From Thermoanaerobaculia bacterium (GTDB lineage Bacteria > Acidobacteriota > Thermoanaerobaculia > Gp7-AA8), in contig DASPHC010000034.1 of NCBI GenBank assembly GCA_035629865.1, positions 11,589-43,588 on the forward strand: a DNA stretch of 32,000 nt, given 5' to 3'. Position 1 is the stretch's first letter, and every line of letters starts with the position of its first letter. A program made the translations under genes and the position numbers. The notes below the pieces were generated by a model. The model had not been told where the DNA came from. It searched no databases and saw only the letters and a program-made list of their open reading frames with translations. Shown in pieces: positions 8,064 to 31,264 of this stretch.

Positions 8064-9446
8064 TCACGGCTTTTCGATGGCAAACGCCTTCATGCGCGAT
8101 TCGAGCGTCGAGGGCTTGATGTGCAGCAGCTCGGCGGCGCCGCCGCGGCCGGAGATTTTCCAGTTGGCGCGGCGCAGGGCGTTCAGGAGGTTGGTGCGCT
8201 CCATCTCGCGCCATTGCGGCTCGTCGATGATGTCGCCGCGGGTCACGTCGGCGCGCACGGTGTCGTCGTCTTCGACGTCGTGAGTGCCCATCGATTCGAT
8301 GAACGGGTCGACCGGGAGGGGGCCGGTGGTGTGGCGGGCGACGGCGTCGAAGACCATTGCCCGGAGCTCGCGGATGTTGCCCGGGAACTCGTACCGGCCG
8401 AGGGCGCGGTAGAGGCGCTCTGGGACGACGGGAGCGGGCTTGCCGAGATCCTGCGCGGCTTCGCGGGCGATGTGGTTGACGAGCAGCGGCAGGTCGCCGA
8501 GGCGCTCGCGGAGCGGCGGGATGCGCACGTGGTAGGCGCGCAGGCGGAAGTAGAGGTCGCGACGGAGCCGCGACGGGTCCTGGTGGGTGGCGGCGATGAC
8601 GCGCGCCTCCAGCCGCTTCGGGACGTCGTCGCCGAGGGTGTAGTACTCGCGCTCCTGCAGGACGCGCAGCAGCTTGACCTGCGACGCCTCGGCGAGATCG
8701 CCGATCTCGTCGAGAAACAGCGTCCCCCGGCCGGCGTTCTCGATCATGCCGCGGCGCGTGCCGCTGGCGCCGGTGAACGCGCCGGGACGATGGCCGAACA
8801 GGGTGTCGGAGAACATGGTGTCGTCGAGGCCGGCGACGTTGACGGCGACGAACGGACCGCGCCGTCCGCTGAGATCGTGGAGCGCGCGCGCGATCAGCTC
8901 TTTTCCCGTTCCGGTCTCTCCGGTGATCAGCGCCGGGTGCGAGCCGCGGGCGATGACTTCGAGGTAGGCGAAGACGCGGATCATCGAGGCGTCGGCGGTG
9001 ATCAGGCCGGCGAAGGCGCGGGGCTGTTCGAGATCCTGTTCGAGCAGTTTCGAGCGCAGCCGCGCATTCTCGTCGCGGAGCTCGCGATGTTCGAGGGCGC
9101 GACGCACGACGGCCATCAGCTCGTCGGCGCCGACCGGCTTGAGGAGGTAGTCGTACGCGCCCGCTTTCATGCATTCGACGGCGATGCGCACGTCCTGTTC
9201 GGCGGTGACGACGATGACCGGGATCTCGGGATGGGACGAGGCGATGCGCTCGAGGAGCTCGCGCCCGCCGATGTGCGGCATCATGAGGTCGAGGAGGATG
9301 AGCGCGACCGGCTCTCCTTCCAGCAGCGGTTCGACGTTGCGGGAGTCGGCGCACATCAACACTTCGTCGAAGCCATTCGCGCGCAGCGTGCGCCGCACGC
9401 CGTTGAGGACCACTTCTTCGTCGTCGACGATCAGGATGGTTGCCAT
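8064..9446 (-). CDS. sigma-54-dependent response regulator (NtrC family: REC + AAA+ + Fis-type HTH), 460 aa
   Basis: Start is MATILIVDDEE at ATG 9446. Receiver motif: LILLDLMMP. Walker A: GETGTGKE. Sigma-54 contact loop: GAFTGA. C-terminal HTH: AAELLHIKPSTLESRMKAF. The upstream part of track ORF 8064..10037 is a shadow. Confidence 0.95.
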   Translation of the reverse strand: MATILIVDDEEVVLNGVRRTLRANGFDEVLMCADSRNVEPLLEGEPVALILLDLMMPHIGGRELLERIASSHPEIPVIVVTAEQDVRIAVECMKAGAYDYLLKPVGADELMAVVRRALEHRELRDENARLRSKLLEQDLEQPRAFAGLITADASMIRVFAYLEVIARGSHPALITGETGTGKELIARALHDLSGRRGPFVAVNVAGLDDTMFSDTLFGHRPGAFTGASGTRRGMIENAGRGTLFLDEIGDLAEASQVKLLRVLQEREYYTLGDDVPKRLEARVIAATHQDPSRLRRDLYFRLRAYHVRIPPLRERLGDLPLLVNHIAREAAQDLGKPAPVVPERLYRALGRYEFPGNIRELRAMVFDAVARHTTGPLPVDPFIESMGTHDVEDDDTVRADVTRGDIIDEPQWREMERTNLLNALRRANWKISGRGGAAELLHIKPSTLESRMKAFAIEKP

Positions 9447-11917
9447 GCGTGTTCCTGCTCCGGAATCGACAGCACCGGAATGGAGAGAGTCGCGGTGGTG
9501 CCGCGTCCCGGCTCCGACTCGAACGTCAGCTCGCCCCCGTGCTCCTCCGCGATGCGGTCCGAGACCGCGAGGCCGAGGCCCGAGCCGCCCGTGGCGCGTT
9601 TGGTCGTGAAGAACGGATCCTTGATCTTGCGCAGGTCCTCCGGCGAGATGCCCTGGCCCTCGTCGGTGACGCGGACGAACACGTGGGCCGGCGTGCGGCC
9701 GGTCTCGATGACGATGGAGCAGTCGGCGCTTGCCAGCGCCTGGCAGGCGTTGATGATGAGGTTCACCAGGACCTGCTCGAGGCGGCCCTGGTTGCCGTGG
9801 ACGTCCGGGAGATCCGGCGCGAGAACAGTCGAGAAGCGGCTGGTGGCCTTGCGGATGTGGTTGCCGAGCAGCCGCAGTGACGACTTGACGACGTCGTTCA
9901 TCGAGACCGGCCGGCGCTCGCCGGGATGGTGATCGAGAGCGAAGCCGCGCAGCTCGGTGACGATGCCCCGGATGCGCTGCGCGGCCTGTTCGATGTCTTC
10001 GATCATCGCCTTGCCTTCGGCGCGCATCTCGTCCCACGGGATGTTCCCGATCCTGGTCTCGCCTTCGAGCGCGACATGGCGGTCGACGATCGGCACGATG
10101 CTCTTCCAGGCGTCGGCCAGGAGGGGGGCGTTGAGCATGATCGAGTGATTGGGATTGTTGATCTCATGGGCCACGCCGGAGACGAGGACGCCGAGGGAGA
10201 TCATCTTGTCGGCGCGGGTCATCGCCTCGCGCTCGCGCTGTGCGGCCTGCTCGACCTGTCGTTGCTCGGTGACGTCCTGCACGATGCCGTAGACGCGGGC
10301 CACGTCCCCGGCCGCATTCCGCTCCGCGAATGACGCACCGCGCGCGATGATCGTGGTTCCGTCCTGATGCACCAGGATCGACTCGCGATCGGCGCTTTCG
10401 TGACGGTGCCCGTGCCGGGCCATCCATGCGAATCTCTCCCGGATGCGCGGCTGGAAATCTTCGCGGAAGCAAGCCACGACTTCTTCGACGGAGCCGAATC
10501 GCGCCTGGGCCTCGCCGGTAAAGATGCCCCAGAAGCCGGCGGAACCGAAGACCTGGTCGGTCGACACATCCCACTCATAGCTCCCGATGCGCGCCAGTAC
10601 CTCCGCTTCTTCGAGGATCTGCTGGCGGTGCAGGAGATCGCGTTCGATGCGCCTGCGATCGGTCACGTCGAGAGTGATCGCGATCAGCCGGGGCTCGGCC
10701 AGCCAAGTGGGCAATCGCGCCAGGCGTTGCAGGAGGTCGATTCGCCGGCCGTCCGGTGCCCGGAGCGGCAGCTCGATGTCCGCCACGCGCGTATCGCCCA
10801 GAAACAGCGATGCGGCGGAGCGCACATACGCGACGGCGGCTTCGGTCGTGTAGCGCGCGGCCAGCCATTCGAACAGAGCTTGCGGAGTCGAGGCGCCGGC
10901 CAGGGCCAGCGCGGGGCCGTTCGCCGTCACGACTTTCGAGTGTTTCGCCAGCTCGAAGAAGAGCGCCGGATTCTCTTCGACCGCGGCGATCAACTTCTCG
11001 GGCGTGTCGAGGCCCAGCCGCAGCATCGCCGGCAGGGTTTCGCTGAAGTCGGTCTCCCACACCGCCACCGGCAACGCGCCGTAGAGGCGCCGGTAGTTCT
11101 GTTCGCTCCGGCGCAGCAAATCCTGCGATTCCCGCTCTTCCGTGATGTCGCGTCCCACGGCCTGGATCTCGACGAGGGTGCCGGTGGCGTCGAAGATCCC
11201 GCGGTCGGTCCAGCGATGCCAGCGCATCATGCCGCGGGCAGTGAAGACCCGATGCTCGTCGGTGGCCACCGGATGCTCCACCGTCAGCGTGGCGTACTTG
11301 TTCCTGACCAGCTCCTGCTCCTCCTCGGGGATGCACGGGAAAAAGGAAGTCCCGATCAGCTCCTCGGCGGTGGCCTCGCTGTAGCGGCAGTAGGCTTCGT
11401 TGACGAACGTGCGCGTGCCGTCGGGCAGGCATCGGACGATGAGCTCCGTCTGGTCTTCGACGACGCGCCGATAGCGTGTCTCGCTCTCGCGTAGCGCCCG
11501 CTCCATGGCCATTCGCTCGCCGACGTCTTCGATGAACCCGATTCCGCAGATCGGCTCGCCGTCTTTCGAGCGCACGATCGACGCGGTCACCTTGGTCGTG
11601 AGCGTCCGGCCGTCGCTGGCGATCCAGCGCCGGACCGTCTCGAGGCTGCTGACCTCTTCCTCACGCAATCGCCCGATGGACCGCTGCGCGTCCTCGGCCT
11701 CCTCGGGATGAACGAACGCGCCGAACGTCTGTCCGACAATGTCATCGCGGTGGCGCCCGAGCATCGCGCAGAAAGCGAGGTTCGCGTCGAGGATGGCGCC
11801 GTGCAGATCGGTCAGAACGACGCCGACGGGCGTGTGGCGGAAGACCTCCTCGAGCGCCTGCTCGTTGATATCAAGTGCCGCCGGCAGATGGATGTGCATG
11901 AATGGACTGTCACTCAT
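9431..11917 (-). CDS. soluble multi-PAS sensor histidine kinase (828 aa)
   Basis: Several PAS-like blocks, then an H-box (VSGVAHEINNPNHSI) and N/G boxes (NLIINACQA, DEGQGI, GSGLGL). There is no TM segment. Its start overlaps the cheB stop by 8 nt, and its stop overlaps the regulator start by 16 nt. Confidence 0.9.
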   Translation of the reverse strand: MSDSPFMHIHLPAALDINEQALEEVFRHTPVGVVLTDLHGAILDANLAFCAMLGRHRDDIVGQTFGAFVHPEEAEDAQRSIGRLREEEVSSLETVRRWIASDGRTLTTKVTASIVRSKDGEPICGIGFIEDVGERMAMERALRESETRYRRVVEDQTELIVRCLPDGTRTFVNEAYCRYSEATAEELIGTSFFPCIPEEEQELVRNKYATLTVEHPVATDEHRVFTARGMMRWHRWTDRGIFDATGTLVEIQAVGRDITEERESQDLLRRSEQNYRRLYGALPVAVWETDFSETLPAMLRLGLDTPEKLIAAVEENPALFFELAKHSKVVTANGPALALAGASTPQALFEWLAARYTTEAAVAYVRSAASLFLGDTRVADIELPLRAPDGRRIDLLQRLARLPTWLAEPRLIAITLDVTDRRRIERDLLHRQQILEEAEVLARIGSYEWDVSTDQVFGSAGFWGIFTGEAQARFGSVEEVVACFREDFQPRIRERFAWMARHGHRHESADRESILVHQDGTTIIARGASFAERNAAGDVARVYGIVQDVTEQRQVEQAAQREREAMTRADKMISLGVLVSGVAHEINNPNHSIMLNAPLLADAWKSIVPIVDRHVALEGETRIGNIPWDEMRAEGKAMIEDIEQAAQRIRGIVTELRGFALDHHPGERRPVSMNDVVKSSLRLLGNHIRKATSRFSTVLAPDLPDVHGNQGRLEQVLVNLIINACQALASADCSIVIETGRTPAHVFVRVTDEGQGISPEDLRKIKDPFFTTKRATGGSGLGLAVSDRIAEEHGGELTFESEPGRGTTATLSIPVLSIPEQEHAWQPS

Positions 11918-13007
11918 TATCTCCCCGGGCCAGGCGGAGCAGCGTGACGCCGATCAGGTCGGCCGGGAGGACTTTCGCGGCCGCGCCGAGGTCGATTGCC
12001 GCTTTGGGCATGCCGAAGACGACGCTGCTCGCTTCGTCCTGCGCCATCGTCAGGGCGCCGGCCGTCCTCATTTCCAGCAGCCCCTGCGCGCCGTCGCGGC
12101 CCATGCCGGTCAGGAGAATCCCGGCGGCGGCGTCGCCGAGCATGCGCGCCGCGGAGGAGAAGAGCACGTCGACGCTGGGACGGTGGCGGTTGACGAGCGG
12201 GCCGTCGTGAAGGGCGATCCCGAGGGAATTCCGGCCGTTCCGGACGAGCGACATGTGCCGGTCGCCCGGGGCGATCAGCGCCGTGCCGGGACGAAGGACT
12301 TCGCCGGCCACGGCCTCGCGAACGGACATCGCCGAGGTCTCGTTGAGGCGGCGCGCGAAAGCGGCGGTGAACCGCTCCGGCATGTGCTGCACGATGACCA
12401 TCGCCGGGGCGTCGGCCGGCATGGTGTCGAGCAGTTGCTTGAGGACTTCCGTGCCGCCGGTGGAGGCGCCGATGGCGATGACCCGCGGGATGCCGGCCGG
12501 ACCGCCGTTTCCGAACGCCACCGGTGCGAGGGTGAGGCGCGGGTGCCGCTCCTCGGCGGTCATGCGCTGCGGCGCCTGCCGCGAAGCGGTCTGGCGGGAC
12601 CGCGCCCGTCCGACCCGCGCCTGCGCCGCGGCGCGGACCGTGTCGATGAGGGCGATGGCGGAGTCGCTGAGCCCTTCTCCCATCCTGATCTTCGGCTTGA
12701 GGACGACATCGACGGCTCCGAGCTGCAGCGCGCGCATGGTCAGCTCGCTCGAAGAGTCGGCGAAGCTGGAGCAGACCACGACCGGGAGCGGTGTTTCGTC
12801 CATCACCTTGCGGAGAAACGTCAGGCCGTCCATGCGCGGCATCTCCAGGTCGAGGACGATGACGTCCGGGAGGCGGACATCCATCTTCGTCATGGCGATC
12901 AGCGGATCGGCGGCGGTCGTCACCACCATCGTCGACCCGAGGAGCGCCGTCATCACCTGGCGCACGACGGCGGAGTCGTCGATCACGAGCACGTTCAGCG
13001 CGGTCAT
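11910..13007 (-). CDS. cheB: chemotaxis response regulator protein-glutamate methylesterase
   Basis: Start is MTALNVLVIDDS at ATG 13007, an ATGA overlap with the cheR stop. REC domain followed by the esterase triad context (GASTGG, QHMP, GMGRDG). Confidence 0.95.
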   Translation of the reverse strand: MTALNVLVIDDSAVVRQVMTALLGSTMVVTTAADPLIAMTKMDVRLPDVIVLDLEMPRMDGLTFLRKVMDETPLPVVVCSSFADSSSELTMRALQLGAVDVVLKPKIRMGEGLSDSAIALIDTVRAAAQARVGRARSRQTASRQAPQRMTAEERHPRLTLAPVAFGNGGPAGIPRVIAIGASTGGTEVLKQLLDTMPADAPAMVIVQHMPERFTAAFARRLNETSAMSVREAVAGEVLRPGTALIAPGDRHMSLVRNGRNSLGIALHDGPLVNRHRPSVDVLFSSAARMLGDAAAGILLTGMGRDGAQGLLEMRTAGALTMAQDEASSVVFGMPKAAIDLGAAAKVLPADLIGVTLLRLARGDNE

Positions 13008-13840
13008 CGGGCCATCCGCGAATAGACCGACGGCGCCATCGGGCGCAGCCGCAGGCCGGAGCTGAGCAGGCTCTCCGAATGCCCGAGGAACAGGTAGCCG
13101 GAGGGCCCGAGGCGGGCCAGGATGCGGGTCACCGCCTGGGTGCGCGAGGTGACGTCGAAGTAGATCAGGACGTTGCGGCAGAAGATCAGATCGAACGATC
13201 CGAGCTCCGGCAACTCCTCGTGCAGGTTGAGCCGCTGGAAGCGGATCGCGGCGCGCACGGCGTCGGTGGCCGACATGGTGCCTTTCTGCGACCGGACCCC
13301 GCGCAGCATGTAGGCCTTCAGGTAGTGCTCGGGGATCTCGGGGGCTTTCTCGATGGGCCACATCCCGGCCATGGCCTGCCGGAGTGCACGTCCGGAGATG
13401 TCGGTGGCCAGGACCTCGATGTCCCATCCTTCGAGATGGGCGAGCAGCGTCATGGCGATCGAATACGGCTCCTGTCCGGTCGAGCAGCCGGCGCTCCAGA
13501 CCCTCACGCGCCGCGGCCGCGCGTGGTTTGCCGCCTCGGCGCACCAGCGCGGGAGGATCTGCTTCTCCAGATAGTCGAACTGCGACGGCTCGCGAAAGAA
13601 GCGGGTCTCGTTCGTGACCAGCCGGTCGAGCATCTCCAGGCGCTCCTGCGGCTCGCGCTCGACGAGCGCGAGGTACTGGCCGAAACGCATCATCCCGAGG
13701 GTGCGGATGCGGCGCGAGAGGCGGGCGGTCAGCAGCTCCCGCTTGTGATCGGAGATGTGGATCCCCGCCTCGCGATAGACGAGGTCGCGGAAGCCGCGGA
13801 ATTCGCGGTCCGACATCGGCACGATCTCACTGGTGTGCAT
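13004..13840 (-). CDS. cheR: chemotaxis protein methyltransferase
   Basis: Motifs: FRDLVYREAGIHISDHKRELL, NETRFFRE, VWSAGCSTGQEPYSIAM, IFCRNVLIYF. Start ATG 13840 (MHTSEI) overlaps the cheW end by 14 nt. The alternative is ATG 13816 (MSDREF). Confidence 0.9.
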   Translation of the reverse strand: MHTSEIVPMSDREFRGFRDLVYREAGIHISDHKRELLTARLSRRIRTLGMMRFGQYLALVEREPQERLEMLDRLVTNETRFFREPSQFDYLEKQILPRWCAEAANHARPRRVRVWSAGCSTGQEPYSIAMTLLAHLEGWDIEVLATDISGRALRQAMAGMWPIEKAPEIPEHYLKAYMLRGVRSQKGTMSATDAVRAAIRFQRLNLHEELPELGSFDLIFCRNVLIYFDVTSRTQAVTRILARLGPSGYLFLGHSESLLSSGLRLRPMAPSVYSRMAR

Positions 13841-14447
13841 CGGTGCCCCCCGCGGCCTGGTCGCGCAGGGTCGGGAGCAGCGTTGCGGCATCCATGATGT
13901 CGGTGCTCGACAGGATGGCCGCGAGGTCGAGCAGCACGATCAGCCGCTCGTCGACGCGCACCAGTCCGGGAACGAAGTCGATGCCGAGGCCGAACGGCGG
14001 CGGCTCTTGGATGTCGGCCTGGGAGACGTCGACGACCCGGCTCACGGCGTCGACCATGACCGCGATCACGACCCGCTCGCCGTCGGCGTCCATCTCCACG
14101 ATGATCAGGCAGGTGCGCCGGGAGACGGTGGTCGGCTCCATGCCGAGCCGGGCCGCCAGGTCGACGACCGGGACGACCGTGCCGCGCAGGTTCATGACGC
14201 CGCGCATCCACGCGGCCGTCATCGGGACCGGGGTGAGCGTCCGGTACTCGGCGATCTCACGCACGCGCAGGATCGAGATGCCATATTCGTCGTCGCCGAT
14301 CAGGAACGTGAGCAACTGCTCGAGCGGTGCCTCGGTGGTCGTGCCGGCCGGCTGAGGCAGGAGCCTCTTTTCGGCCGGTGGATTCGCGGCGGCGTCTTTC
14401 GACGCCCGCCGCGGGGTGCGTTTGGTGCTCGTGGCGCGACGTGCCAT
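13827..14447 (-). CDS. cheW: chemotaxis coupling protein CheW with a ~45-aa basic N-terminal extension
   Basis: CheW core: LLTFLIGDDEYGISILRVREI...VMNLRGTVVPVVDL...GLVRVDERLIVLLDL. The ATG shares 1 nt with the mcp stop (TGATG). Confidence 0.9.
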   Translation of the reverse strand: MARRATSTKRTPRRASKDAAANPPAEKRLLPQPAGTTTEAPLEQLLTFLIGDDEYGISILRVREIAEYRTLTPVPMTAAWMRGVMNLRGTVVPVVDLAARLGMEPTTVSRRTCLIIVEMDADGERVVIAVMVDAVSRVVDVSQADIQEPPPFGLGIDFVPGLVRVDERLIVLLDLAAILSSTDIMDAATLLPTLRDQAAGGTDAHQ

Positions 14448-16297
14448 CAGAACCTCTCGAAGTCGAACTGCGACAGCTCCGCGGCGGTGGGCCGGTATCC
14501 GGCGGTTGCAGCGAGATGCGCACCGTCGTCGTCATCCGAGTCTGCGAACGCGGGAGGATCGTCCTGGACGACCGTCCGCTTCGCGCCGAGGGTGAAGATC
14601 TCCATCCGCTGCCGGAGGGTCTTGGCCTGGCCGGCCAGCTCTTCCGCCGTCGCCGAGAGCTCCTCGGCGGCGGACGCGTTCTGCTGGGTGATCTGGTCGA
14701 GCAGGCTCATGGCCTGGTTGATCTGGGCCACGCCCGTCGACTGTTCGTTCGACGCGGCCGAGACTTCCTGCACGAGCTCCGCGGTCTTGTGAATCGAGGG
14801 GACGAGCTGGGTGAGCGACGTGGCCGAGCGTTCGGCGATGCGGACGCTCGATCCCGCCAGTCCGCCGATCTCCTTCGCCGCGCTCTGGCTGCGCTCCGCC
14901 AGCTTGCGCACTTCGCTGGCGACGACGGCGAAGCCGCGTCCGTGCTCGCCGGCGCGGGCGGCCTCGATGGCGGCGTTCAGCGCCAGGAGGTTGGTCTGGT
15001 AGGCGATGTCTTCGACGATGCTGATCTTCTCGGCGATCGCGGCCATCGCTTCCCTGGTCTCGCCGACGGCCCGTCCGCTGAGCTCCGCATCGCGGGCGCC
15101 CTGGATGGCCATGTCGCGCATCTCCTGGCTGTTGGCGGCGTTCTGGGTGATCGAGGCGGTCATCTGTTCGAGGCTGGCCGTGGCCTGCTCGACCGAGGCG
15201 CTCTGGCTGCTGGTGCCGCGCGACAGGCTCTGCGCGGTCGACGAGACCTGCGTCGACGCGGTGGACAGCGTCGCCACGCCGGAGCGCACGTCGCCGATCA
15301 TCTGGGCGAGGTTGCGGGTCATCTTGCGCAGCGCCAGCGCCAGCGTGTCGTCCTTCGACTTCGGCTTGATCGTCGAGGTGAGGTCGCCCGCGGCGATGGA
15401 GTCGGCGATGCCGGTCATCTCCTGGAGGTACGCCACCATGTCGCGGAACGAACGGCCGAGGGTGTCGTTCTCCGAGCGGGGAGCGACGGTCGCGCTGACG
15501 TCGCCGCGGGAGATGCGCTCGGCCGCGCCGGCCATCTCCTGGAAGTACTGCACCATCCGTTTCATCGACTGCAGCAGCCGCCCGATCTCGTCGTCGCGGG
15601 TGCCGTCGATCTCCGCCGCCAGGTTGCCGGCCGCGAGCTGATTGGCCACTTCCACCGCCTGATGGAGCGGCCGGGTGAGGCTGCGGATCAGCATCACCGA
15701 GACGCCGGCCAGCAGGAGCAGGCAGACGACGCTGATGACGATCACCAGCCACTGGGTGGAACGGTGCAGGGAGCGCACTTCGCTGAACGCCGTCTGGATG
15801 TTCTGCTTGCCCTTGCTGCGCGTGGTGTCGAGCGCGGTGGCGAGCTCGTTGTGGCGGCGGCGCATCTCTTCGAGCGACTCCGCGAAGCTCACCCCGGTCT
15901 CGCCGGTGATGAGCCGGACGGTCATGCCGCGCCCGAGGCCGTAGTAGGCGTTGAGCAGGCCGCGCAGACGCTCGACCTCCGCCGCGTCGACGGCCGGATT
16001 GGCGCTCTCTTTCTGCAGCCGCGCCAGGAACTTCTCCTTCAGCGCGTCGGCTTCCTGGATGCCCGCGGCGTCGTGCGCGGCCGCGGCGTCCTGCAGGGCG
16101 CGCTGGATCGAGGTGAGGATCTCGTGCAGGTCGTGATGCATCTCGGTGGCCGGGAAGTAGCCCACCTCGATCATCGTGCTGAAGGACTCGGTGCGCGAGA
16201 CGGCGAAGACGGTCGTGCCGAGGATCAGCACGAGCGCCAATGCGGCGATGGCCGGCATCATGAGGACCCGATGGACGAACTTCAGTTTACGAAACAT
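14447..16297 (-). CDS. methyl-accepting chemotaxis protein (2 TM, periplasmic helical domain, three HAMP-like units, signalling domain)
   Basis: Highly conserved hairpin tip: [40 protein letters not shown]. Repeated HAMP-like segments: [47 protein letters not shown] lies 6 nt before ATG 16297. Confidence 0.95.
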
Positions 16298-17955
16298 GAC
16301 CGCTCCTGATTGCTGCGTGTTGAGTTACGGAAAAGAGAGCTGCGCTGGTCGATCTCGACCTGCAGCAGACCGGGGACGTCGACGATGAATGCGATCCTGC
16401 CGTTCGGGAGGATCGCCGAGCCGGAGAGACCGGGGATGCCGCGCAGGGACTTCGGAAGCGGCTTGACGACGGTGTGGCATTCGCCGTGGAGGTCGTCGAC
16501 GACGAGCGCCGCGCGCCCGCGGGCGTAGCGAACCACCACGACGTTCTCGCGCTCCGCTTCCCCGCCGCCGGGCGTGAACCGCCCGCGCAGGCGGATGAAC
16601 GGAATGCTCTCGCCGCGGTGAGTGAGCACGCCGGTCGCGCCCACGCCGGCTTCTTCCCGTTCCACCGTGCCGGCCGGGAGATGGAGCGCCTCGACGACGG
16701 CTTCCATCGGGATCACGAACGTCTCGCCGCCGACGCCCACGCCGAGGCCGTCGACGATGGCGAGGGTGAGGGGGAGCCGCACGCGGAAGGTCGTGCCGCG
16801 TCCCGGCTCGCTCTCGACGCTCACCGATCCGTGGATCGCGTCGATGTTGCGCCGCACGACGTCGAGGCCGACCCCCCGCCCGGAGAGGTCCGTCACGGCG
16901 TCCGCGGTGGAGAACCCGGGATGGAAGATCAGCTCCGCGGCCTGCGCGGCGGTGAGGGTCTCTGTTTCGCTCACTAAGCCGCGCTCGCGAGCCCGGCGGA
17001 TGACGCGGTCGTAGTCGATGCCGCCGCCGTCGTCGGCGAGCTCGATGACGATCGAGCCGGCCTCACGGAAGCTGCGCAGGATGAGCGTCCCGGCGGCAGG
17101 CTTGCCCGCCGCGCGGCGCGCCGCGGGCTTTTCGATGCCGTGACCGACGCTGTTGCGGATCATGTGGACGAGCGGGTCGCGCAGGTGCTCGATCACGGTC
17201 ATGTCGACTTCGACGTCGACGCCTTCGATGCGCAGCTCCGCTTCTTTGCCGAGCGAGCGGGCGGTGTCGCGCACGATCCGCTGGAACTGCCGGAACGTCG
17301 GACCCACCGGCACCATGCGAAGCTTCATCACCAGCTCCTGCATCTCGAGGTGGAGATGGTCGGCGTCGCGCTGCGCTTCGAGCGCGATCCGGCTGGTGAC
17401 GGTGGGGTCGCCGAGCATTTCGCTGAGGCGGCCGCGGGCGATGCCGATCTCGCCGCTCAGGTCGAGCAGGCGGTCGAGCTTCGCCAGGTCGATGCGCAGC
17501 GTGCGCGAGACGCGCTCCGGCGTCGCCGGCCCTGCTGCCTGCGCGGCGTCGTGCGCCGGGACGTGCAGCGGGTCGGCGCGGCGCAGGTGCTCGATGAGCT
17601 CCAGCTCGGCCGCGGAGAGTGCGCGGGTGCGGTCGGATTCGAACAGCAGGCCGCGCAGCACGTCGACCGATTCGAGGAGCAGCGTGATGATGCCGTTCGA
17701 GACGACGGTCTGCCCGGCGCGCAACCGGTCGAGCAGGTCTTCCATGGCGTGCGCGATCCGGGTCATGGCGTCGAACTCGAAGATCCCGGAGTTGCCTTTG
17801 ATCGTGTGGACCGCGCGGAATACCAACGCGAGGGAGTCGGCGTGCTCGGGGGTGCGCTCGAGCACGAGCAACGCTTCCTCCGCCGCCGTCAGCCCTTCGT
17901 CGGACTCGGCGATGAATGCCTCGAGGAGGGCGGCCATCGATTGGTTGTCGAGCAC
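16282..17955 (-). CDS. cheA: chemotaxis histidine kinase CheA (Hpt, dimerisation, HATPase, CheW-like; no REC)
   Basis: Hpt motif: [12 protein letters not shown]. HATPase: [17 protein letters not shown]-terminal CheW-like domain. Start is probably GTG 17955 (GGGAGAGAG just upstream); the alternative is ATG 17937. The upstream part of track ORF 16282..18330 is a shadow. Confidence 0.95.
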
Positions 17956-17966
17956 GGTCTCTCTCC

Positions 17967-18458
17967 CTACAGCTTCCGAATGAGCGTCGTGCCGTCGGTG
18001 GTGCGGAACGTGAGCTTCCGTCCCTGCCGCCCTTCGACGTCGTGACGAAGGACCGTGATGCCGTTGCGCTCCAGGAAGTCGAAGGCCTCGGCGACGTTCC
18101 GGCTGCCCAGCAGCGGCCCTTCGCCATCGCCCGGCATCACCGAGGCGCCGCCGAACACGCAGGCCAGCAGCGTCTCTCCCCGCGCACCGTTCTCCAGCAC
18201 CCGGTCGAGCAGCATCGGCAGCGCGTGATTGCCGTACCGCGCCGAGGGGGCGGCTCCGCCGTGCGGGAGGATGAAGTGATTGATCCCGCCGACCGCGGTC
18301 AGCGGATCCCACAGGCAAACGGACACGCACGAGCCGAGGACGGTCGTGATTGCGGCGGCAAAGGGCTCTGTCCAGAGGCCGCCTGGATGGAGATACACCT
18401 TGCGCTCGGGCATGGAACGGTTCTCCGTGGCCGCCGGTGGAACGGCGTGCGCTTTCAT
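17967..18458 (-). CDS. cheD: chemoreceptor glutamine deamidase CheD (163 aa)
   Basis: Sequence MKAHAV...VLGSCVSVCLWDP...GGINHFILP...VFGGASV is typical CheD. ATG 18458 is in an ATGA overlap with the upstream GAF gene stop. Confidence 0.9.
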   Translation of the reverse strand: MKAHAVPPAATENRSMPERKVYLHPGGLWTEPFAAAITTVLGSCVSVCLWDPLTAVGGINHFILPHGGAAPSARYGNHALPMLLDRVLENGARGETLLACVFGGASVMPGDGEGPLLGSRNVAEAFDFLERNGITVLRHDVEGRQGRKLTFRTTDGTTLIRKL

Positions 18459-23686: not shown

Positions 23687-23693
23687 TGCCTCC

Positions 23694-23792
23694 CTACTCC
23701 CCGGCCTTCTTCTCAGGCCTCGCCGGCGGCGGATGCCCGTACTGCACGCCGAAGGCGAACTTGTCGAACTTCAAGGGCATGTTCTTCTTCAT
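23694..23792 (-). CDS. possible 32-aa ORF, mini-paralog of the 156-aa protein at 20711..21181
   Basis: My own translation: MKKNMPLKFDKFAFGVQYGHPPPARPEKKAGE*. Its N-terminus resembles MKKSKPAPKYDFGLS and its C-terminus resembles DFGHPPPPRPPKKKEEEEG. DNA homology is visible (cttcttc..aggcctcg.cggcggcgg). It ends 7 nt before the Roc-TIR GTG. It may be a remnant rather than a gene. Confidence 0.3.
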   Translation of the reverse strand: MKKNMPLKFDKFAFGVQYGHPPPARPEKKAGE

Positions 23793-23933
23793 CTCGAATC
23801 TCGCGATCGGCCGTCTGGGAACTGCTCTACGGTACTACCAACACCGGCGACAGCCGAGAGGCATGATGGGAGCCCGCGATGGGAGCGACGGTGTCCGCGC
23901 AGGCTTGTCCGGCGCGGCGTCTCGCCGCCAGGG

Positions 23934-24112
23934 AACGGACCGCCGGCCCGTCCCGCCGGCCGGTCCGCCGACGTCGCGTCGGCAGGCACTCGCGATGCGT
24001 GTCGTATTCGACGGTTGGGTGGTGGAGCCGCGCCGTAGGCGAGCTCCTGCCAAGAGCCGGCCCACGAGGACGTGGGCGGACCGGCCGGCGAGGACGGCCG
24101 GCGGTCCGTTTG
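23934..24112. repeat. palindromic element related to 20471..20692
   Basis: Arms are ggaacggaccgccggcccgtcccgccggccggtccgcc and ggcggaccggccggcgaggacggccggcggtccgtttgc. The same inner hairpin appears with a different loop (gccgacg-tcg-cgtcggc). Confidence 0.7.
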
Positions 24113-24213
24113 CGGCGCGCCGGAGGCGCGCCAATCGCCCCGGAGGCATGTCGTGGGGTCAGAGCTTCGCTCTTCGTTCCTGAGCAAAGCAAAGCTCTGA
24201 CCCCAAGAGCGAG

Positions 24214-24805
24214 CCCGGCGCTGAAGATCAGAGCCGGGAGGCAAGAAACGAGTCGCGCGCGGCAAGATTGTTGTCTCGGGCGACAAGATTCTTGTCTCGC
24301 GAAGCGTCATTCTTGTGTCGCGGCTCTGAAAACCAGAGCCGGGAAGCATCAAACGAGTCTCGGGCGCCAGGATTCTTGTCTCGCGAGGCAACATTCTTGT
24401 GTTGCGGCTCTGAGAATCAGAGCCGGGAGGCAAGGAACGAGTCTCGCGAGGCAAGATTGTTGTCTCGGGCGCCAAGATTCTTCGCTCGCGAGGCAACATT
24501 CTTGTCTCGCGGCTCTGAAACTCAGAGCCGGGAGGTAAGAAAAGAGTCTCGGGCGCCAAGATTCTTGCCTCGCGACGCAACATTCTTGTGTCGCGGCTCT
24601 GAAAGTCAGAGCCGGGAAGCAAGAAGCGAGTCTCGCGCGACTGGATTGTTGCCTCGGGCGCCAAGATTCTTGCCTCGCGAGGCAACATTCTTGTGTCGCG
24701 GCTCTGAGAGTCAGAGCCGGGAAGCAACAAACGAGTCTCGGGTGACAAGATTCTTGCCTCGCGAGGCAACATTCTTATCTCCCGGCTCTGAAAGTCAGAG
24801 CCGGG
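24214..24805. repeat. nested tandem array: 21-bp palindrome-containing units, 84/105-bp super-units, 189-bp higher-order period
   Basis: There are seven copies of the hairpin CGGCTCTGA-nnn-TCAGAGCCGGG, with starts spaced 105, 84, 105, 84, 105 and 84 bp. Between them lie 2 or 3 units of 21 bp built on TTGyCTCGsGrGrCAA (a perfect 16-bp palindrome TTGCCTCGCGAGGCAA in several copies) plus a gATTc/cATTc linker. G+C is lower than the surroundings. The array is preceded by a related hairpin at 24155..24204 (ggggtcagagctt/aagctctgacccc). Confidence 0.9.
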
Positions 24806-24855
24806 AAGCGAGGATCATGTCTCTCGCGACGAGATCGACTTGGGCTGGATCGGCT

Positions 24856-25014
24856 TTACGTTCCGGCGCACGCGGAGGGAGGTTTGGAACCCTCCCCCTC
24901 GTAATACACATCCGCCTCCACCCGCTGCTGCCACTCCGGCCAGGTCTCGACGGTGCTTTGCGCCTCCTCGAGGACTGTCCAGAAGTCGATGGGCGGCGGA
25001 ACGTCCTCGGCCAT
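24856..25014 (-). CDS. possible small ORF (52 aa)
   Basis: My own translation: MAEDVPPPIDFWTVLEEAQSTVETWPEWQQRVEADVYYEGEGSKPPSACAGT*. The composition is protein-like but there is no convincing RBS. It is below the track cutoff. Confidence 0.25.
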   Translation of the reverse strand: MAEDVPPPIDFWTVLEEAQSTVETWPEWQQRVEADVYYEGEGSKPPSACAGT

Positions 25015-25096
25015 GAAGAGATTATCGCTCAAATGTTTAGCGGCTCATAATCCTCTTCAATGGGTAGAGCGGGGGGCACCGGGGGATGCGGCCTCT

Positions 25097-25260
25097 AGTG
25101 TGGTGTCTCACAAATAGCTATGCGTTCTTCAGCACGCTGGAGGCCCGCTTGCTTCGCCGCCGCCCCTCAACGATGACACCGCATCGCCTGCGTCGCGGCG
25201 GCTCGCCATCGAGCCTCCGTCGCGCCGAATAACGTATAGCTATTTGCGAGACACCACACT
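25097..25260. mobile_element. 164-bp MITE-like element with 30-bp terminal inverted repeats
   Basis: Left arm agtgtggtgtctcacaaatagctatgcgtt matches the reverse complement of the right arm aacgtatagctatttgcgagacaccacact at 28 of 30 positions. The arms are conspicuously AT-richer than the genome. The right end is 50 bp upstream of ATG 25310. Confidence 0.65.
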
Positions 25261-25309
25261 CGGGTAGGGATTCGGCGGCCCGGATCACTCCTTCGGGAGA
25301 GGAGAGAGC

Positions 25310-29003: not shown

Positions 29004-29033
29004 TTGACAGAGCGTAACAGAAGGACGTACAAG
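29004..29033 (+). promoter_or_regulatory. candidate sigma-70-type promoter for the DUF2130-like/ParB-like operon
   Basis: TTGACA (29004..29009), an 18-nt spacer, then TACAAG (29028..29033). It sits in a locally AT-richer divergent intergenic region, ~50 nt before ATG 29087. Confidence 0.25.
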
Positions 29034-29086
29034 TACAAAAGAGGACTTACAAGGACAGGCAGGGAGCGTATGCTCCGGGAGGCCCG

Positions 29087-30172
29087 ATGAACGTCATCGC
29101 CGTGGAACGCTGCCCGTGGTGCGGCAGCATGATCACCCACAAAAAGTTCGTCCAGATCCAGGCCGCCATCCGCGAAGAGGAGCAGAAGAAGCTTGCCGCG
29201 GCTGAGAAATCCTTCCGGGCCGCCCTTGAAAAAGAGGTCGCCGCGCAGCAGTTGAAGTTCCAGAAGGAGCGCCAGGCGCTCGATGCCGAGCGGGCGAAGC
29301 TGGGGAAACAGATCGAGGCGGCGAAGCAGGAGGCCGAGAAGCAGCGCAAGAAGGACATCGCCGAGGTCCGCCAGATCCTGCAGAAGGATCGCGAGACCGC
29401 CATCCTGAAGAAGGAGGCGGAGTTCGCCCGGGAGCGGGAGGCGCTGCAGAAGCGGATCGCCGAGATGAGCCGGCGGGTGAAGCGCGGCGGCGAGGTCGGG
29501 GAGGGGTCGGAGCTCGATCTCTTCGACGAGCTCCGCGGCGCCTTCCCGGAGGACCAGGTCACCCGCACGAAGGGGAAGGGTGTGGGCACGATCCTGCACG
29601 ATGTGCGCTACAAGGGGCGTTCCGCAGGCAAGATCCTGCTCGATATCACACCCCGCGCAGCGTGGCAGCACGCGTTCGTGACCCGGTTGCGCGAGGAGCA
29701 GTCGGCCACCGGCACCGATCACGCGATCCTGTCCACCCCTGTCTTTCCGTCCGGCAAGCGGGAGCTGTTCGTCGATTCCGGGATCATCGTGGTCGCCCCG
29801 GCGCGGGTCCGGGCGATCGTGGAGGTGCTGCGGAAGGCGCTGATCTCGATGTACGTGGCGAAGCTGAGCGACGCGGAGCGGTCGGACAAGCTGAGCCGCC
29901 TGTTCCGCTTCATCACCTCGCCCGGCTTCAAGAAACGGCTGGCCGAGGCCTCCGACCTGGCAGGAGAGGCGCTGGAGATCGACGTGCAGGAGAAGCGGGC
30001 CCACGACAATGTCTGGAAGAAGCGCGGCACGGTCCTGACCCGCATCAAGCACGTGCTCCGCGAGATCGACACCGACGTCAGCGCGATCGTCGAGGCGCGG
30101 GAGGAGGGCGACCCCGAGGCGCCTCCCTCGCTGCGCGCTGCCGCTTACCGCATCACGGACAAAGAGCAATGA
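29087..30172 (+). CDS. DUF2130-like protein: N-terminal zinc ribbon, long coiled coil, C-terminal restriction-endonuclease-like domain (361 aa)
   Basis: GGGAGG lies 5 nt before the ATG. Zinc ribbon CPWCG, then ~110 aa of Lys/Glu/Ala/Gln coiled coil. The following stretch, GSELDLFDELRGAFPEDQVTRTKGKGVGTILHDVRYKGRSAGKILLDITPRAAWQHAFVTRLREEQ...HAILSTPVFP, follows the DUF2130 layout as I recall it. Confidence 0.65.
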   Translation: MNVIAVERCPWCGSMITHKKFVQIQAAIREEEQKKLAAAEKSFRAALEKEVAAQQLKFQKERQALDAERAKLGKQIEAAKQEAEKQRKKDIAEVRQILQKDRETAILKKEAEFAREREALQKRIAEMSRRVKRGGEVGEGSELDLFDELRGAFPEDQVTRTKGKGVGTILHDVRYKGRSAGKILLDITPRAAWQHAFVTRLREEQSATGTDHAILSTPVFPSGKRELFVDSGIIVVAPARVRAIVEVLRKALISMYVAKLSDAERSDKLSRLFRFITSPGFKKRLAEASDLAGEALEIDVQEKRAHDNVWKKRGTVLTRIKHVLREIDTDVSAIVEAREEGDPEAPPSLRAAAYRITDKEQ

Positions 30173-31116
30173 GCAACTTCGCGGAGCCGATCGGCAGTCC
30201 CGCCCCTCCCTGGCAGGAGCGCCGCCTCGGACGCACGATCCTGCGCACCTATCGCGACACCCGCGATCTGTACGACGTCGTCCCGAACGCGCGCCAGCCG
30301 CGCATGGGGCCGAAGGAGGATCTCGAGCTGCAGCGGCAGATCGAGGCGAACGAGGGGATCTTCGAGCCGCTGCTGGTCGAGCCGCACCCGGACCTGGAGG
30401 GGAAGTACCGGATCATCGACGGCGACCGCCGCTGGACGAACTCGAAGGTGCTGGTGGAGGTCCAGAAGAAGGAGGAGTACCGCCGCATCCCCCTCGAGAT
30501 CACCGACCGGACGCTCACCGACGAGGAGCGCCTGCGGGTCTGGATCTACATCCATCGCCAGCGGAAGGAGTGGGACGCCAAGGAGAAGGAGATGGTGGCG
30601 TACGGCCTGGTCGACATCGTCGGCCGCGCCAGTGCCGCGAACATCCTCGGCGTGACGGTGCGGGAGCTCGACAAGCTGGTGGAGATCTACCAGCTCTCCG
30701 AGAAGCTGACCAACCTCCCCGAGCCCGGTTCCTCGATCACCTGGGCCCGCGAGATCAAGAACATCAACAAGTCCCTCCTGACCCCGACGATCCTCGACAC
30801 GATCGTGCAGAAGGTGAACGAGAACGAGATCACCAACTCGAAGGACATCCGCAAACTGCGCATCGTCCTCCGCGACCCGGTCGCCAGGCAGAAGTTCGTC
30901 GAGGGGCAAAGCCTCGACGCGGTGCTGGATGCCGTGCTGCCGGTGGTGGAGGAGAAGAAGAAGGGTGGGCTTGCGGGGGAGATCGAGGAGCTGAACGAAG
31001 CGCTCCGCCGGCATCCGTGGACGAGCCTCATCGAGAACCGCGGGGATGAGAAGCTGCTGAAGCAGTTGGAAGAGGCGGAGAAGCTGGTGAAGGAGTTGCG
31101 GAAGGTGTTGGGGTAG
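30169..31116 (+). CDS. ParB/Srx N-terminal-domain-like protein (315 aa)
   Basis: ATG 30169 is in an ATGA overlap with the upstream stop. The ParB-like box is GIFEPLLVEPHPDLEGKYRIIDGDRRWTNS (DGxRR arginine patch), followed by a helical C-terminal region. The upstream part of track ORF 29662..31116 is a shadow. Confidence 0.65.
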   Translation: MSNFAEPIGSPAPPWQERRLGRTILRTYRDTRDLYDVVPNARQPRMGPKEDLELQRQIEANEGIFEPLLVEPHPDLEGKYRIIDGDRRWTNSKVLVEVQKKEEYRRIPLEITDRTLTDEERLRVWIYIHRQRKEWDAKEKEMVAYGLVDIVGRASAANILGVTVRELDKLVEIYQLSEKLTNLPEPGSSITWAREIKNINKSLLTPTILDTIVQKVNENEITNSKDIRKLRIVLRDPVARQKFVEGQSLDAVLDAVLPVVEEKKKGGLAGEIEELNEALRRHPWTSLIENRGDEKLLKQLEEAEKLVKELRKVLG

Positions 31117-31122
31117 GGACCG

Positions 31123-31264
31123 GGATTGAGGATTGAGGATTGAGGATTGAGGATTTGGCCGGTGGTTACCGGTGATCCCAGATCCTCAATGCTCTGACCC
31201 CGGCCGCCCTCGGAGGGCGCGGGATTCCATGTCCCTAATCCTCAATCCTCAATCCTCAATCCCC
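31123..31264. repeat. heptamer tandem repeat (GGATTGA x4) paired with inverted complement (AATCCTC x3-4); long hairpin
   Basis: 31123..31156 is ggattga x4 plus ggattt. 31237..31264 is aatcctc x3 plus aatcccc. There is one extra partial copy (gatcctcaat, 31181..31190) and an inner palindrome cgccctc-g-gagggcg. It sits between convergent gene ends (31116 and 31266). Confidence 0.85.

Follow-up and report, generated by a model that had tools for sequence, protein, structure and literature searches.

A 32,000-nucleotide (nt) stretch of a metagenome-assembled genome (MAG) from the Thermoanaerobaculia (Acidobacteriota), hereafter the window, harbors a conserved, mobile, accessory two-gene module that carries its own operator (Table 1). 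The upstream gene (gene 1) encodes a protein in which a CxxC motif and a long helix precede a nuclease-fold domain, and the downstream gene (gene 2) encodes a ParB-type protein; their NCBI product names are 'DUF2130 domain-containing protein' and 'ParB N-terminal domain-containing protein', respectively. The two genes share an ATGA at 30169-30172, an overlap that a preliminary description of the window had noted and that the open reading frame (ORF) coordinates confirm. The same description could match the pair to no named system, and this still holds. PADLOC 2.0.0 contains no model for gene 2 (sole match E 0.077) or for the nuclease domain of gene 1 (coiled-coil matches only), and a full-text literature search on DUF2130 and COG4487 uncovered nothing functional, the supplementary tables of defense-discovery papers lying outside that search, such that a prior listing as a candidate is possible.

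The strictness of the pairing emerges from two scans, one anchored on gene 1 (one genome per GTDB species, using a 13-sequence alignment; 32 loci returned) and the other a metagenome scan anchored on gene 2 (80 loci returned of more than 509 relatives). A gene 2 homolog abuts gene 1 in all 29 genome loci with downstream room, that of a Spirochaetota MAG included, and a DUF2130 gene ends at the gene 2 start in all 70 of the 80 metagenome loci that retain at least 300 nt upstream; the expectation that the two are conserved as a unit is thus borne out. Overlap or abutment of 0-8 nt is the rule across loci. Approximately 2,300 clusters at 50% identity match the DUF2130 domain of gene 1 at E<=0.001, and two distant DUF2130 genes, 31-33% identical and located in a Nitrospiraceae genome and an alphaproteobacterium, occur without gene 2. 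Because of these two, the pairing defines a DUF2130 subfamily rather than the family as a whole.

The module is found in Acidobacteriota, Spirochaetota, Myxococcota, and Alphaproteobacteria, on plasmids, and on one IMG/VR contig, its carriers including Tropicimonas, Polyangiaceae, the Spirochaetota MAG, and plasmids of Aminobacter and Skermanella. Among 72,556 plasmids, five match; four have both genes, and in the fifth gene 1 is truncated by IS5 and gene 2 is kept. A collection of cultured phages (50,697 records) contains no homolog of either protein, and the single IMG/VR contig was recovered with gene 2, the corresponding IMG/VR scan with gene 1 returning none. Aminobacter and Skermanella, members of two alphaproteobacterial orders, share proteins with the same accessions, and the flanks of the pair are non-syntenic even among close relatives. 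Gene 2 is consistently the better conserved partner, being 59-90% identical across homologs where gene 1 is 31-76% identical (59-79% and 31-57%, respectively, in other phyla), and gene 1 homologs range from 340 to 550 residues in length. One MAG, SMAG_U1737, carries two copies of the pair on separate contigs (L009 and L011), one linked to an XRE-type gene and one not, which reflects either true paralogy or mixed binning.

Gene 1 is a protein of simple and unusual architecture. Its CPWCG motif (residues 9-13), whose CxxC cysteines C9 and C12 (nt 29111-29122) are conserved family-wide, is predicted by AlphaFold2 (42-sequence alignment; mean predicted local distance difference test score, pLDDT, of 83.7) to sit on a small beta knuckle, followed by an uninterrupted helix of 116 residues (18-133; nt 29138-29485) rich in A, K, E, Q, and R, by a DUF2130 domain of PD-(D/E)xK fold with C-terminal helices (approximately residues 137-336; nt 29495-30094), and by a helical tail. 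The predicted core has the order alpha-beta-beta-beta-alpha-beta (H145-152, E157-160, E168-175, E178-186, H196-208, E212-216). The succession of CPWCG, coiled coil, and C-terminal DUF2130 domain set out in the preliminary description is therefore confirmed, and residues 131-361 match PF09903 (DUF2130) at 43.5 bits (E 3.2e-11; gathering cut-off 26.7) once the helix is removed. The full-length protein has no Pfam match at E<=0.1, presumably owing to interference from the compositionally biased helix. The 'zinc ribbon' of that description did not survive scrutiny: gene 1 has two cysteines in all, forming a single CxxC half-site, so that two chains would be needed to complete a Cys4 site.

DUF2130 has been cataloged as PD-(D/E)xK family 109, of unknown function (PMC3424549). 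A PDB sequence search with gene 1 found no relatives, and its PDB fold matches are weak, all with E>=0.02 (EcoT38I, the Cap4 nuclease domain, Ecl18kI, and a splicing endonuclease). Fold matches in BFVD are stronger (E 1e-4 to 1.5e-6) and comprise Mrr-like or restriction-endonuclease proteins, mostly uncharacterized proteins from giant viruses that resemble gene 1 in size, one of which carries an Mrr-type restriction endonuclease annotation. With these, with RmuC, and with other coiled-coil PD-(D/E)xK proteins, gene 1 shares a coiled coil ahead of a restriction-endonuclease fold, predicted in its case, at the C terminus; it differs in belonging to PF09903, in having no transmembrane segment, and in its obligatory ParB-like partner. 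Four PADLOC LmuB profiles also match residues 4-141, CxxC included, at profile positions ~317-470. In LmuB, as in Rad50, the coiled coil is tipped by a zinc hook (bioRxiv 10.1101/2025.03.14.643221), and Lamassu (LmuB with the LmuA nuclease) and Rad50-Mre11 resemble the pair in combining a long CxxC-tipped coiled coil with a nuclease effector and a defense context. Unlike them, gene 1 is devoid of an ABC ATPase head (neither Pfam nor NCBIfam scans detect an ATPase domain), has a single helix rather than an antiparallel arm, and carries the nuclease on the same chain. The profile match may be largely compositional. We treat the LmuB likeness of the CxxC and coiled coil as a lead only.

The nuclease site sets the window and its relatives apart from the rest of the family. 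The consensus of 42 diverse homologs consists of E142, G-A-D168-I, H-E172-V, and D186-S-K188-N-R, with D168 present in 37 and K188 in 40 of them. In the window these segments read GVGT168ILHDV and D186-I-T188-P-R; both the catalytic D168 and K188 are threonine, and the protein thereby lacks the catalytic Asp and the (D/E)-x-K that characterize the PD-(D/E)xK superfamily. A divergent nuclease site had been suspected beforehand, and the suspicion extends to all of clade A, the Thermoanaerobaculia clade of the window, which comprises the loci whose gene 2 shares 80% or more identity with that of the window. No clade A sequence has Asp at position 168, where the residue varies freely (N/T/V/L/I/Q/H and others); T, R, or K stands at position 188, and D186 is in some cases replaced by Ala. 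In a comparison of 125 loci, the E/D/D-x-K residues are kept by all lineages outside this clade, namely the clade B soil metagenomes, Spirochaetota, Polyangiaceae, Rhodobacterales, the plasmids, and the IMG/VR contig. Since D168 and K188 are lost throughout its clade, the gene 1 product of the window probably has no nuclease activity. Clade A members nonetheless share 60-79% identity over the remainder of gene 1, where many basic residues are invariant, and the degenerate form persists in more than 28 species; the alignments thus delineate a whole clade of gene 1 proteins that are catalytically degenerate yet constrained.

The ParB N-terminal fold with GDRRW that had been recognized in gene 2 is upheld by comparisons with profiles and structures, albeit marginally at the level of the profile: PF02195 (ParB_N) scores 28.4-30.3 bits, just above its cut-off of 26.3, whereas TIGR00180, with 28.8 bits, stays below its cut-off of 58.45. 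Alignments of gene 2 were obtained with Caulobacter ParB (6t1f) and, spanning residues 36-253, with Noc (7ol9). Box I (QPR, residues 43-45) and Box II (GDRRW, 85-89) correspond to QPR and GERRW in Caulobacter ParB, and neither varies among 14 homologs from four phyla; Box III reads IHRQR as opposed to ENLQR in Noc, the Q and final R alone being retained. The domains comprise an NTPase fold (~36-135), a helix-turn-helix (HTH) with a helical domain (~136-260), and C-terminal helices (267-314). The AlphaFold2 model is poor, with a pLDDT below 50 in the NTPase domain (shallow alignment, 83-92% identity), and it is from this poor model that the best fold matches, Noc, ParB, Spo0J, and KorB over ~240 columns, derive. 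Residues 15-240 are nearly invariant across 20 clade A sequences. An invariant N-terminal peptide, RRLGRTILRTYR (residues 18-29; nt 30220..30255), contains LGRTI, which resembles IGRTL of P1 ParB, described in a 2025 survey of ParB-CTPase-fold proteins as a divergent ParA-binding motif (PMC12704722). The peptide could serve as a contact for the DUF2130 partner or for a ParA of the host. The same survey holds that the nucleotide specificity of the fold is not predictable from sequence or AlphaFold3 (PMC12704722).

Upstream of gene 1, a TTGACA hexamer is followed by four direct 8-mers at an exact 10-bp period (Table 1), the sole such array in the window (two matches vs 0.10 expected; two were reached by no shuffle). 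Across 34 non-redundant loci, AAGGACA occurs in 22 (0.6 expected), successive sites are spaced by exactly 10 bp in 54 of 89 cases, and phased sites 10 or 20 bp apart are found in 28, compared with 0.8% of background 130-nt windows. In its conserved form, the element consists of TTGACA and then two to five AAGGAC half-sites at 10-bp phase. Clade B loci have TTGACA, three AAAAGGAC(TAA) units, and an inverted GTCCTT ~8 nt on, and proteobacterial and plasmid copies have AAATAGGA or AAGTAGGA units, ~10 bp apart in the loci examined. The array begins ~10 bp past the -35 hexamer and would span the -10 region and the transcription start. With regard to the TTGACA-type promoter put forward in the preliminary description, the hexamer is present, and TTGAC recurs in 28 of the 34 loci, about as far upstream of gene 1, but a generic sigma-70 scan calls no full promoter at TTGACA 29004.

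The operator is retained wherever the pair goes, with or without the XRE gene or the deaminase discussed below, which makes gene 2 the candidate binder; the simplest reading of the array is a putative binding or loading site for this HTH protein. That the A(N)GGA repeats act as CsrA-type RNA sites is less likely, given the exact 10-bp spacing and the location of the array in the promoter spacer. Three deaminase-linked clade A loci (L016, L020, and L022) are without TTGACA and the AAGGAC array and carry short tandem repeats such as (CGAGGAAC)n and (GCTCAACA)n instead, indicating replacement of the operator in certain lineages. In the window, operator and Shine-Dalgarno sequence are separated by a palindrome, kept as GGAGCGTA(A/T)GCTCC in many clade A loci, which may form a leader hairpin or a second protein site. 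In the clade B loci L094-L123, a long leader separates operator and start codon and includes a conserved block ~100 nt upstream of gene 1, for example GAGCAGTCATGCTGTAGGAG, which may be a structured element of the 5' untranslated region. Rfam and tRNA scans detected no Rfam family or tRNA near the pair.

On the other side of this intergenic region lies a divergently transcribed gene for an anti-phage dCTP deaminase, which matches NCBIfam NF041025 at 400 bits, equal to the cut-off. As had been described, the spacer measures 92 bp, or 107 bp with ATG 28979 as the deaminase start, and is richer in AT than its surroundings (55% GC vs 66.6% for the whole window). Any deaminase promoter must therefore fall within the same 92-107 bp as the operator. 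The deaminase is divergently upstream in 13 of ~30 genome loci and in seven metagenome loci, all of clade A, and is absent from all nuclease-intact lineages among the loci compared. In nine further genome loci and 13 metagenome loci of clade A, the slot is filled by an XRE-type HTH protein of ~140 residues with weak similarity to CapH, and the remaining clade A loci have other genes there. A neighbor-joining tree of gene 1, computed without support values, places deaminase-linked loci at the base of clade A, interspersed with XRE-linked ones. The deaminase is thus a facultative, clade-specific neighbor that shares the operator-bearing intergenic region, and the cytidine-nucleotide link between the pair and the deaminase that had been floated is pure speculation.

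The wider surroundings of the pair were surveyed with gene calls based on GC content at third codon positions (GC3) in the fetched loci and with PADLOC and Pfam censuses that count per family. Relatives outside clade A have many defense and mobile-element genes around them: a Bub ubiquitin-like system, HigB, and type I restriction-modification genes (L037); the short-pAgo partner Aga_REase (4.5e-171), IS3, and TacAT (L042); AIPR and a TIR-like DUF4062 protein (L043); QatC, a PglX-like methyltransferase, and a serine recombinase (L036); and, at a Rhizobium locus, a methyltransferase, ImmA, and multiubiquitin-ThiF. RelE/MqsA also figures among the neighbors outside clade A, and 76 clade B neighbors include DruD/DruE (Druantia), Cas3/Cas6, AbiEi/AbiEii, NucC, and several PDC families. 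The defense neighbors in the window are the dCTP deaminase and, farther upstream, a leucine-rich-repeat (LRR)-Roc-COR-TIR protein. The block that holds the pair on alphaproteobacterial repABC and related plasmids also contains genes for SSB, zeta toxin, WGR, toprim, ArdC-like, and giant helicase proteins. In Aminobacter pMET2 (L045) and Skermanella pTT6-3 (L046), this block, identical between the two genera, contains a WGR protein, a second ParB_N protein of 573 residues, toprim, and a methylase-helicase of 1,710 residues, to which the marine repABC plasmids (L128-L131) add SSB and zeta toxin. The block looks like a plasmid establishment region.

These contexts do not resemble partition. No ParA (CbiA, ParA, or AAA_31) adjoins the pair in any annotated locus, repABC plasmids with the pair have their own RepA/RepB in a separate operon ~4 kb away, and TIGR00180 is well below its cut-off; a reading of the pair as a partition system is accordingly rejected. 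The likeness to ParABS systems, that of P1 included, consists of the ParB_N fold, QPR, G(D/E)RRW, LGRTI in place of IGRTL, and repeats beside the operon; the pair differs in its missing ParA, its marginal ParB_N score, and the presence of separate partition genes on its host plasmids.

ParB-fold CTP switches function in chromosome segregation (ParB, Noc, and PadC) and in gene control on plasmids and integrative and conjugative elements (ICEs; KorB, VirB, and BisD). Of these, KorB and BisD provide precedents for CTP-gated sliding clamps of the ParB family whose targets are genes on mobile elements (PMC11790492, PMC12409273). KorB, which acts with KorA or TrbA on RK2, and BisD of ICEclc are, like gene 2, orphan ParB-type proteins outside parAB that combine an NTPase fold with HTH and dimerization domains; they too have a second protein as a partner and sites in promoters, and KorB figures among the best fold matches of gene 2. 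The differences are equally clear. The partner here is a CxxC coiled-coil PD-(D/E)xK protein and not a small HTH repressor, the site consists of 10-bp-phased direct half-sites and not a single palindrome, and the pair is mostly chromosomal, in defense islands, its gating by a nucleoside triphosphate (NTP) being proposed by analogy. GmrSD, SspE, and DndB also tie an NTP-binding module of ParB/Srx fold to a nuclease in a defense context. There, DUF262 is fused to HNH (DUF1524), whereas here a full ParB/Noc-type protein with HTH is accompanied by PD-(D/E)xK in trans, and Pfam and PADLOC scans of the pair give no match to DUF262 or DUF1524.

Taken together, we tentatively favor a model in which an NTP-gated, ParB-like clamp and autorepressor operates with a zinc-dimerized coiled-coil nuclease arm, a pair that ancestrally served DNA-directed defense or competition between mobile elements and of which the window clade would be a nuclease-dead derivative. 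Gene 2 would bind the phased AAGGAC half-sites in its own promoter, repress the operon, and in the window also occupy the stretch in which the promoter of the divergent deaminase has to be located; analogy with ParB, KorB, and BisD suggests that it could use the operator to load as an NTP-gated clamp. The CxxC half zinc site of gene 1, at the tip of a helix of ~170 angstroms, would probably join two chains in the manner of the Rad50/LmuB zinc hook. In the ancestral pair, the clamp would mark or hold DNA and the coiled-coil nuclease would cut it, a role in DNA-directed immunity or mobile-element competition being most likely because the catalytic residues are intact and the setting is one of defense or plasmid establishment in most lineages. 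The window-clade copy would probably be a DNA-binding or regulatory derivative, with another effector or regulator in the divergent slot (the deaminase here, an XRE/CapH-like protein in sister genomes). The DNA-sensing clamp or nuclease pair in defense or exclusion envisaged in the preliminary description is consequently in part sustained, by relatives among defense and mobile genes, and in part contradicted, by the loss of the catalytic Asp and Lys from the window's own copy. A bolder version of the model, which we consider rather doubtful, posits a new type of immune or mobile-element conflict system in which a very strongly conserved ParB clamp, NTP-gated and loaded on DNA, deploys a zinc-hooked coiled-coil PD-(D/E)xK nuclease and in which, in Thermoanaerobaculia, the nuclease has been inactivated and the sensor rewired to the deaminase through the shared operator, an effector swap.

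A number of observations weigh against the clamp-nuclease model. The 112 nearest clade A neighbors, with the deaminase and XRE genes left out, are mostly ordinary (ECF sigma factors, LigD, peptidases, and TonB receptors), with only ~6 PADLOC matches. The defense census consists of family counts, not per-locus rates, and depends on the GC3-based gene calls. The association with the deaminase possibly stems from one ancestral event and would then amount to a single observation, the tree being of the neighbor-joining type without support values. Persistence of a nuclease-dead partner in so many species argues that DNA cutting is not essential in clade A. A chromosomal clamp-loading site beside an active nuclease raises a problem of self-targeting that the model does not solve. 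For gene 2, the NTPase domain is modeled with low confidence, Box III is divergent, and nucleotide specificity is not readable from sequence (PMC12704722). Some other factor could bind the phased repeats.

The pair might instead be a module of mobile DNA that regulates or silences genes and itself plays no part in immunity, after the fashion of KorB-KorA/TrbA on RK2 and BisD on ICEclc, an account that we regard as possible and on balance unlikely. The clamp would load at AAGGAC and slide to control its flanks, the DUF2130 protein would be a clamp-locking or DNA-bridging cofactor, and the defense genes would be cargo. Overlap of the operator with the core promoter and with the intergenic region shared with the deaminase in the window accords with this account, as do the varied occupants of the divergent slot (deaminase, XRE/CapH-like, and TIR-like DUF4062 proteins), the placement in plasmid establishment blocks, next to genes for SSB, toprim, ArdC-like, and large helicase proteins, the retention of the module by the nuclease-dead clade, and the KorB and BisD precedents (PMC11790492, PMC12409273). 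It leaves the intact catalytic triad of most lineages superfluous, as a pure co-repressor would not need one, and most clade B loci have no conserved neighbor to regulate.

The tight two-gene operon with an autoregulatory operator is also reminiscent of an addiction or abortive-infection module of toxin-antitoxin (TA) type, in which the DUF2130 protein would be the toxin, the ParB-like protein the antitoxin and autorepressor, and clade A a detoxified remnant. Occurrence on plasmids and in defense islands beside TacAT, HigB, RelE/MqsA, and zeta points in this direction, as does the copy that kept gene 2 when gene 1 was cut by an insertion sequence. Still, conservation is much higher in the putative antitoxin (59-90% identity across phyla) than in the toxin, the opposite of typical TA evolution; both proteins are large; and one would not expect purifying selection to maintain a dead toxin, at 60-79% identity, in more than 28 species, all of which render a TA module distinctly improbable. 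Housekeeping DNA maintenance, whether repair or recombination by a clamp with a Rad50/Mre11- or RmuC-like nuclease or ParA-independent segregation or tethering with the array as a centromere, is very unlikely. The order of repeats, gene A, and centromere-binding ParB does recall partition cassettes, LGRTI resembles IGRTL of P1 ParB, LigD, MutS, or GyrB adjoins some loci, and gene 2 is very highly conserved. Against this stand the absence of an adjacent ParA from every locus together with the separate RepA/RepB of repABC plasmids, the occurrence on only five of 72,556 plasmids, and a patchy distribution with non-syntenic flanks, evidence of horizontal transfer, and one MAG with two copies.

The 2025 survey notes that many orphan ParBs on mobile elements are uncharacterized and, in the passages searched, mentions no DUF2130 partner (PMC12704722). 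Here, an orphan ParB gains a defined, obligatory partner, a DNA site, and a genomic habitat. Should the clamp-nuclease model with an immune role be correct, a sliding clamp would represent a new sensing principle in bacterial defense and DUF2130 would acquire a function; were the effector swap also true, ParB clamps would act as immune sensors or regulators. The nuclease-dead clade beside the deaminase constitutes a natural experiment in effector exchange and may bear on how the deaminase is regulated. Cultured hosts, namely Tropicimonas sp. S265A and the bearers of the Aminobacter and Skermanella plasmids, make the module directly testable.

Table 1. Coordinates of the module, its regulatory elements, and neighboring features in the window
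Feature	Position	Strand	Details
Gene 1	29087..30172	+	361 aa; ORF reading
Gene 2	30169..31116	+	315 aa; ORF reading
TTGACA, -35-like	29004..29009	+	read from sequence
TACAAG, -10-like	29028-29033	+	18-nt spacer after TTGACA; -10 assignment inferred
Operator array, four direct 8-mers, exact 10-bp period	29019..29056	+	AGAAGGAC 29019, ACAAGTAC 29029, AAGAGGAC 29039, ACAAGGAC 29049
5' leader palindrome GGAGCGTATGCTCC	29063..29076	+	directly before Shine-Dalgarno GGGAGG (29077-29082)
Anti-phage dCTP deaminase, 515 aa	27447..28994	-	PADLOC dCTPase 487 bits, 2.5e-146; alternative ATG 28979
LRR-Roc-COR-A/COR-B-TIR protein, 812 aa	21248..23686	-	TIR domain vs PADLOC ThsB 4.5e-22
Tandem array	24216..24809		in gene-free 23687..25309; period 189 (84 + 105), 3.1 copies, 87% matches
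Inverted heptamer arrays (GGATTGA)n / (AATCCTC)n	31123..31262	.	enclose two smaller hairpins; arms within 31123..31158, 31232..31262

Beyond the deaminase lie a GH64-like gene, a gene-free stretch of 1.6 kb, and the LRR-Roc-COR-TIR gene, whose product resembles a ROCO-type NLR-like immune protein and is encoded 3.8 kb from the deaminase; this part of the window looks like a small defense island. A chemotaxis and signaling cluster on the minus strand (9431..18330; PAS histidine kinase, CheB, methyl-accepting chemotaxis protein, and CheA-CheW) is unrelated to the pair. The gene-free stretch contains a tandem array built of a 21-nt sub-repeat, GTCTCGCGAGGCAAGATTCTT, and hairpins of the form GGCTCTGA-N3-TCAGAGCC. 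It had been suggested (as 24214..24805) to be a binding site for the pair, a role for which it was rejected: it contains no AAGGAC motif and no Rfam family above threshold, it does not recur in the flanks of other loci, and the candidate site is the AAGGAC array in the promoter of the pair.

Downstream, gene 2 is convergent with an ABC-2 permease gene, and the inverted heptamer repeats lie between the two. The hairpin noted at this end of the pair is real, (GGATTGA)4.7 at 31123-31155 pairing with (AATCCTC)3.7 at 31237-31262 (dG -98.6 kcal/mol, z -7.9), and has no T tract. It was dismissed as a part of the module, as it occurs in this genome alone, and the sole sub-threshold Rfam match, MIR845, falls inside the repeat region and is a chance match. 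Different short tandem repeats occupy intergenic regions of the Thermoanaerobaculia loci L016, L020, and L022, which suggests a habit of intergenic microsatellite-like repeats in this lineage.

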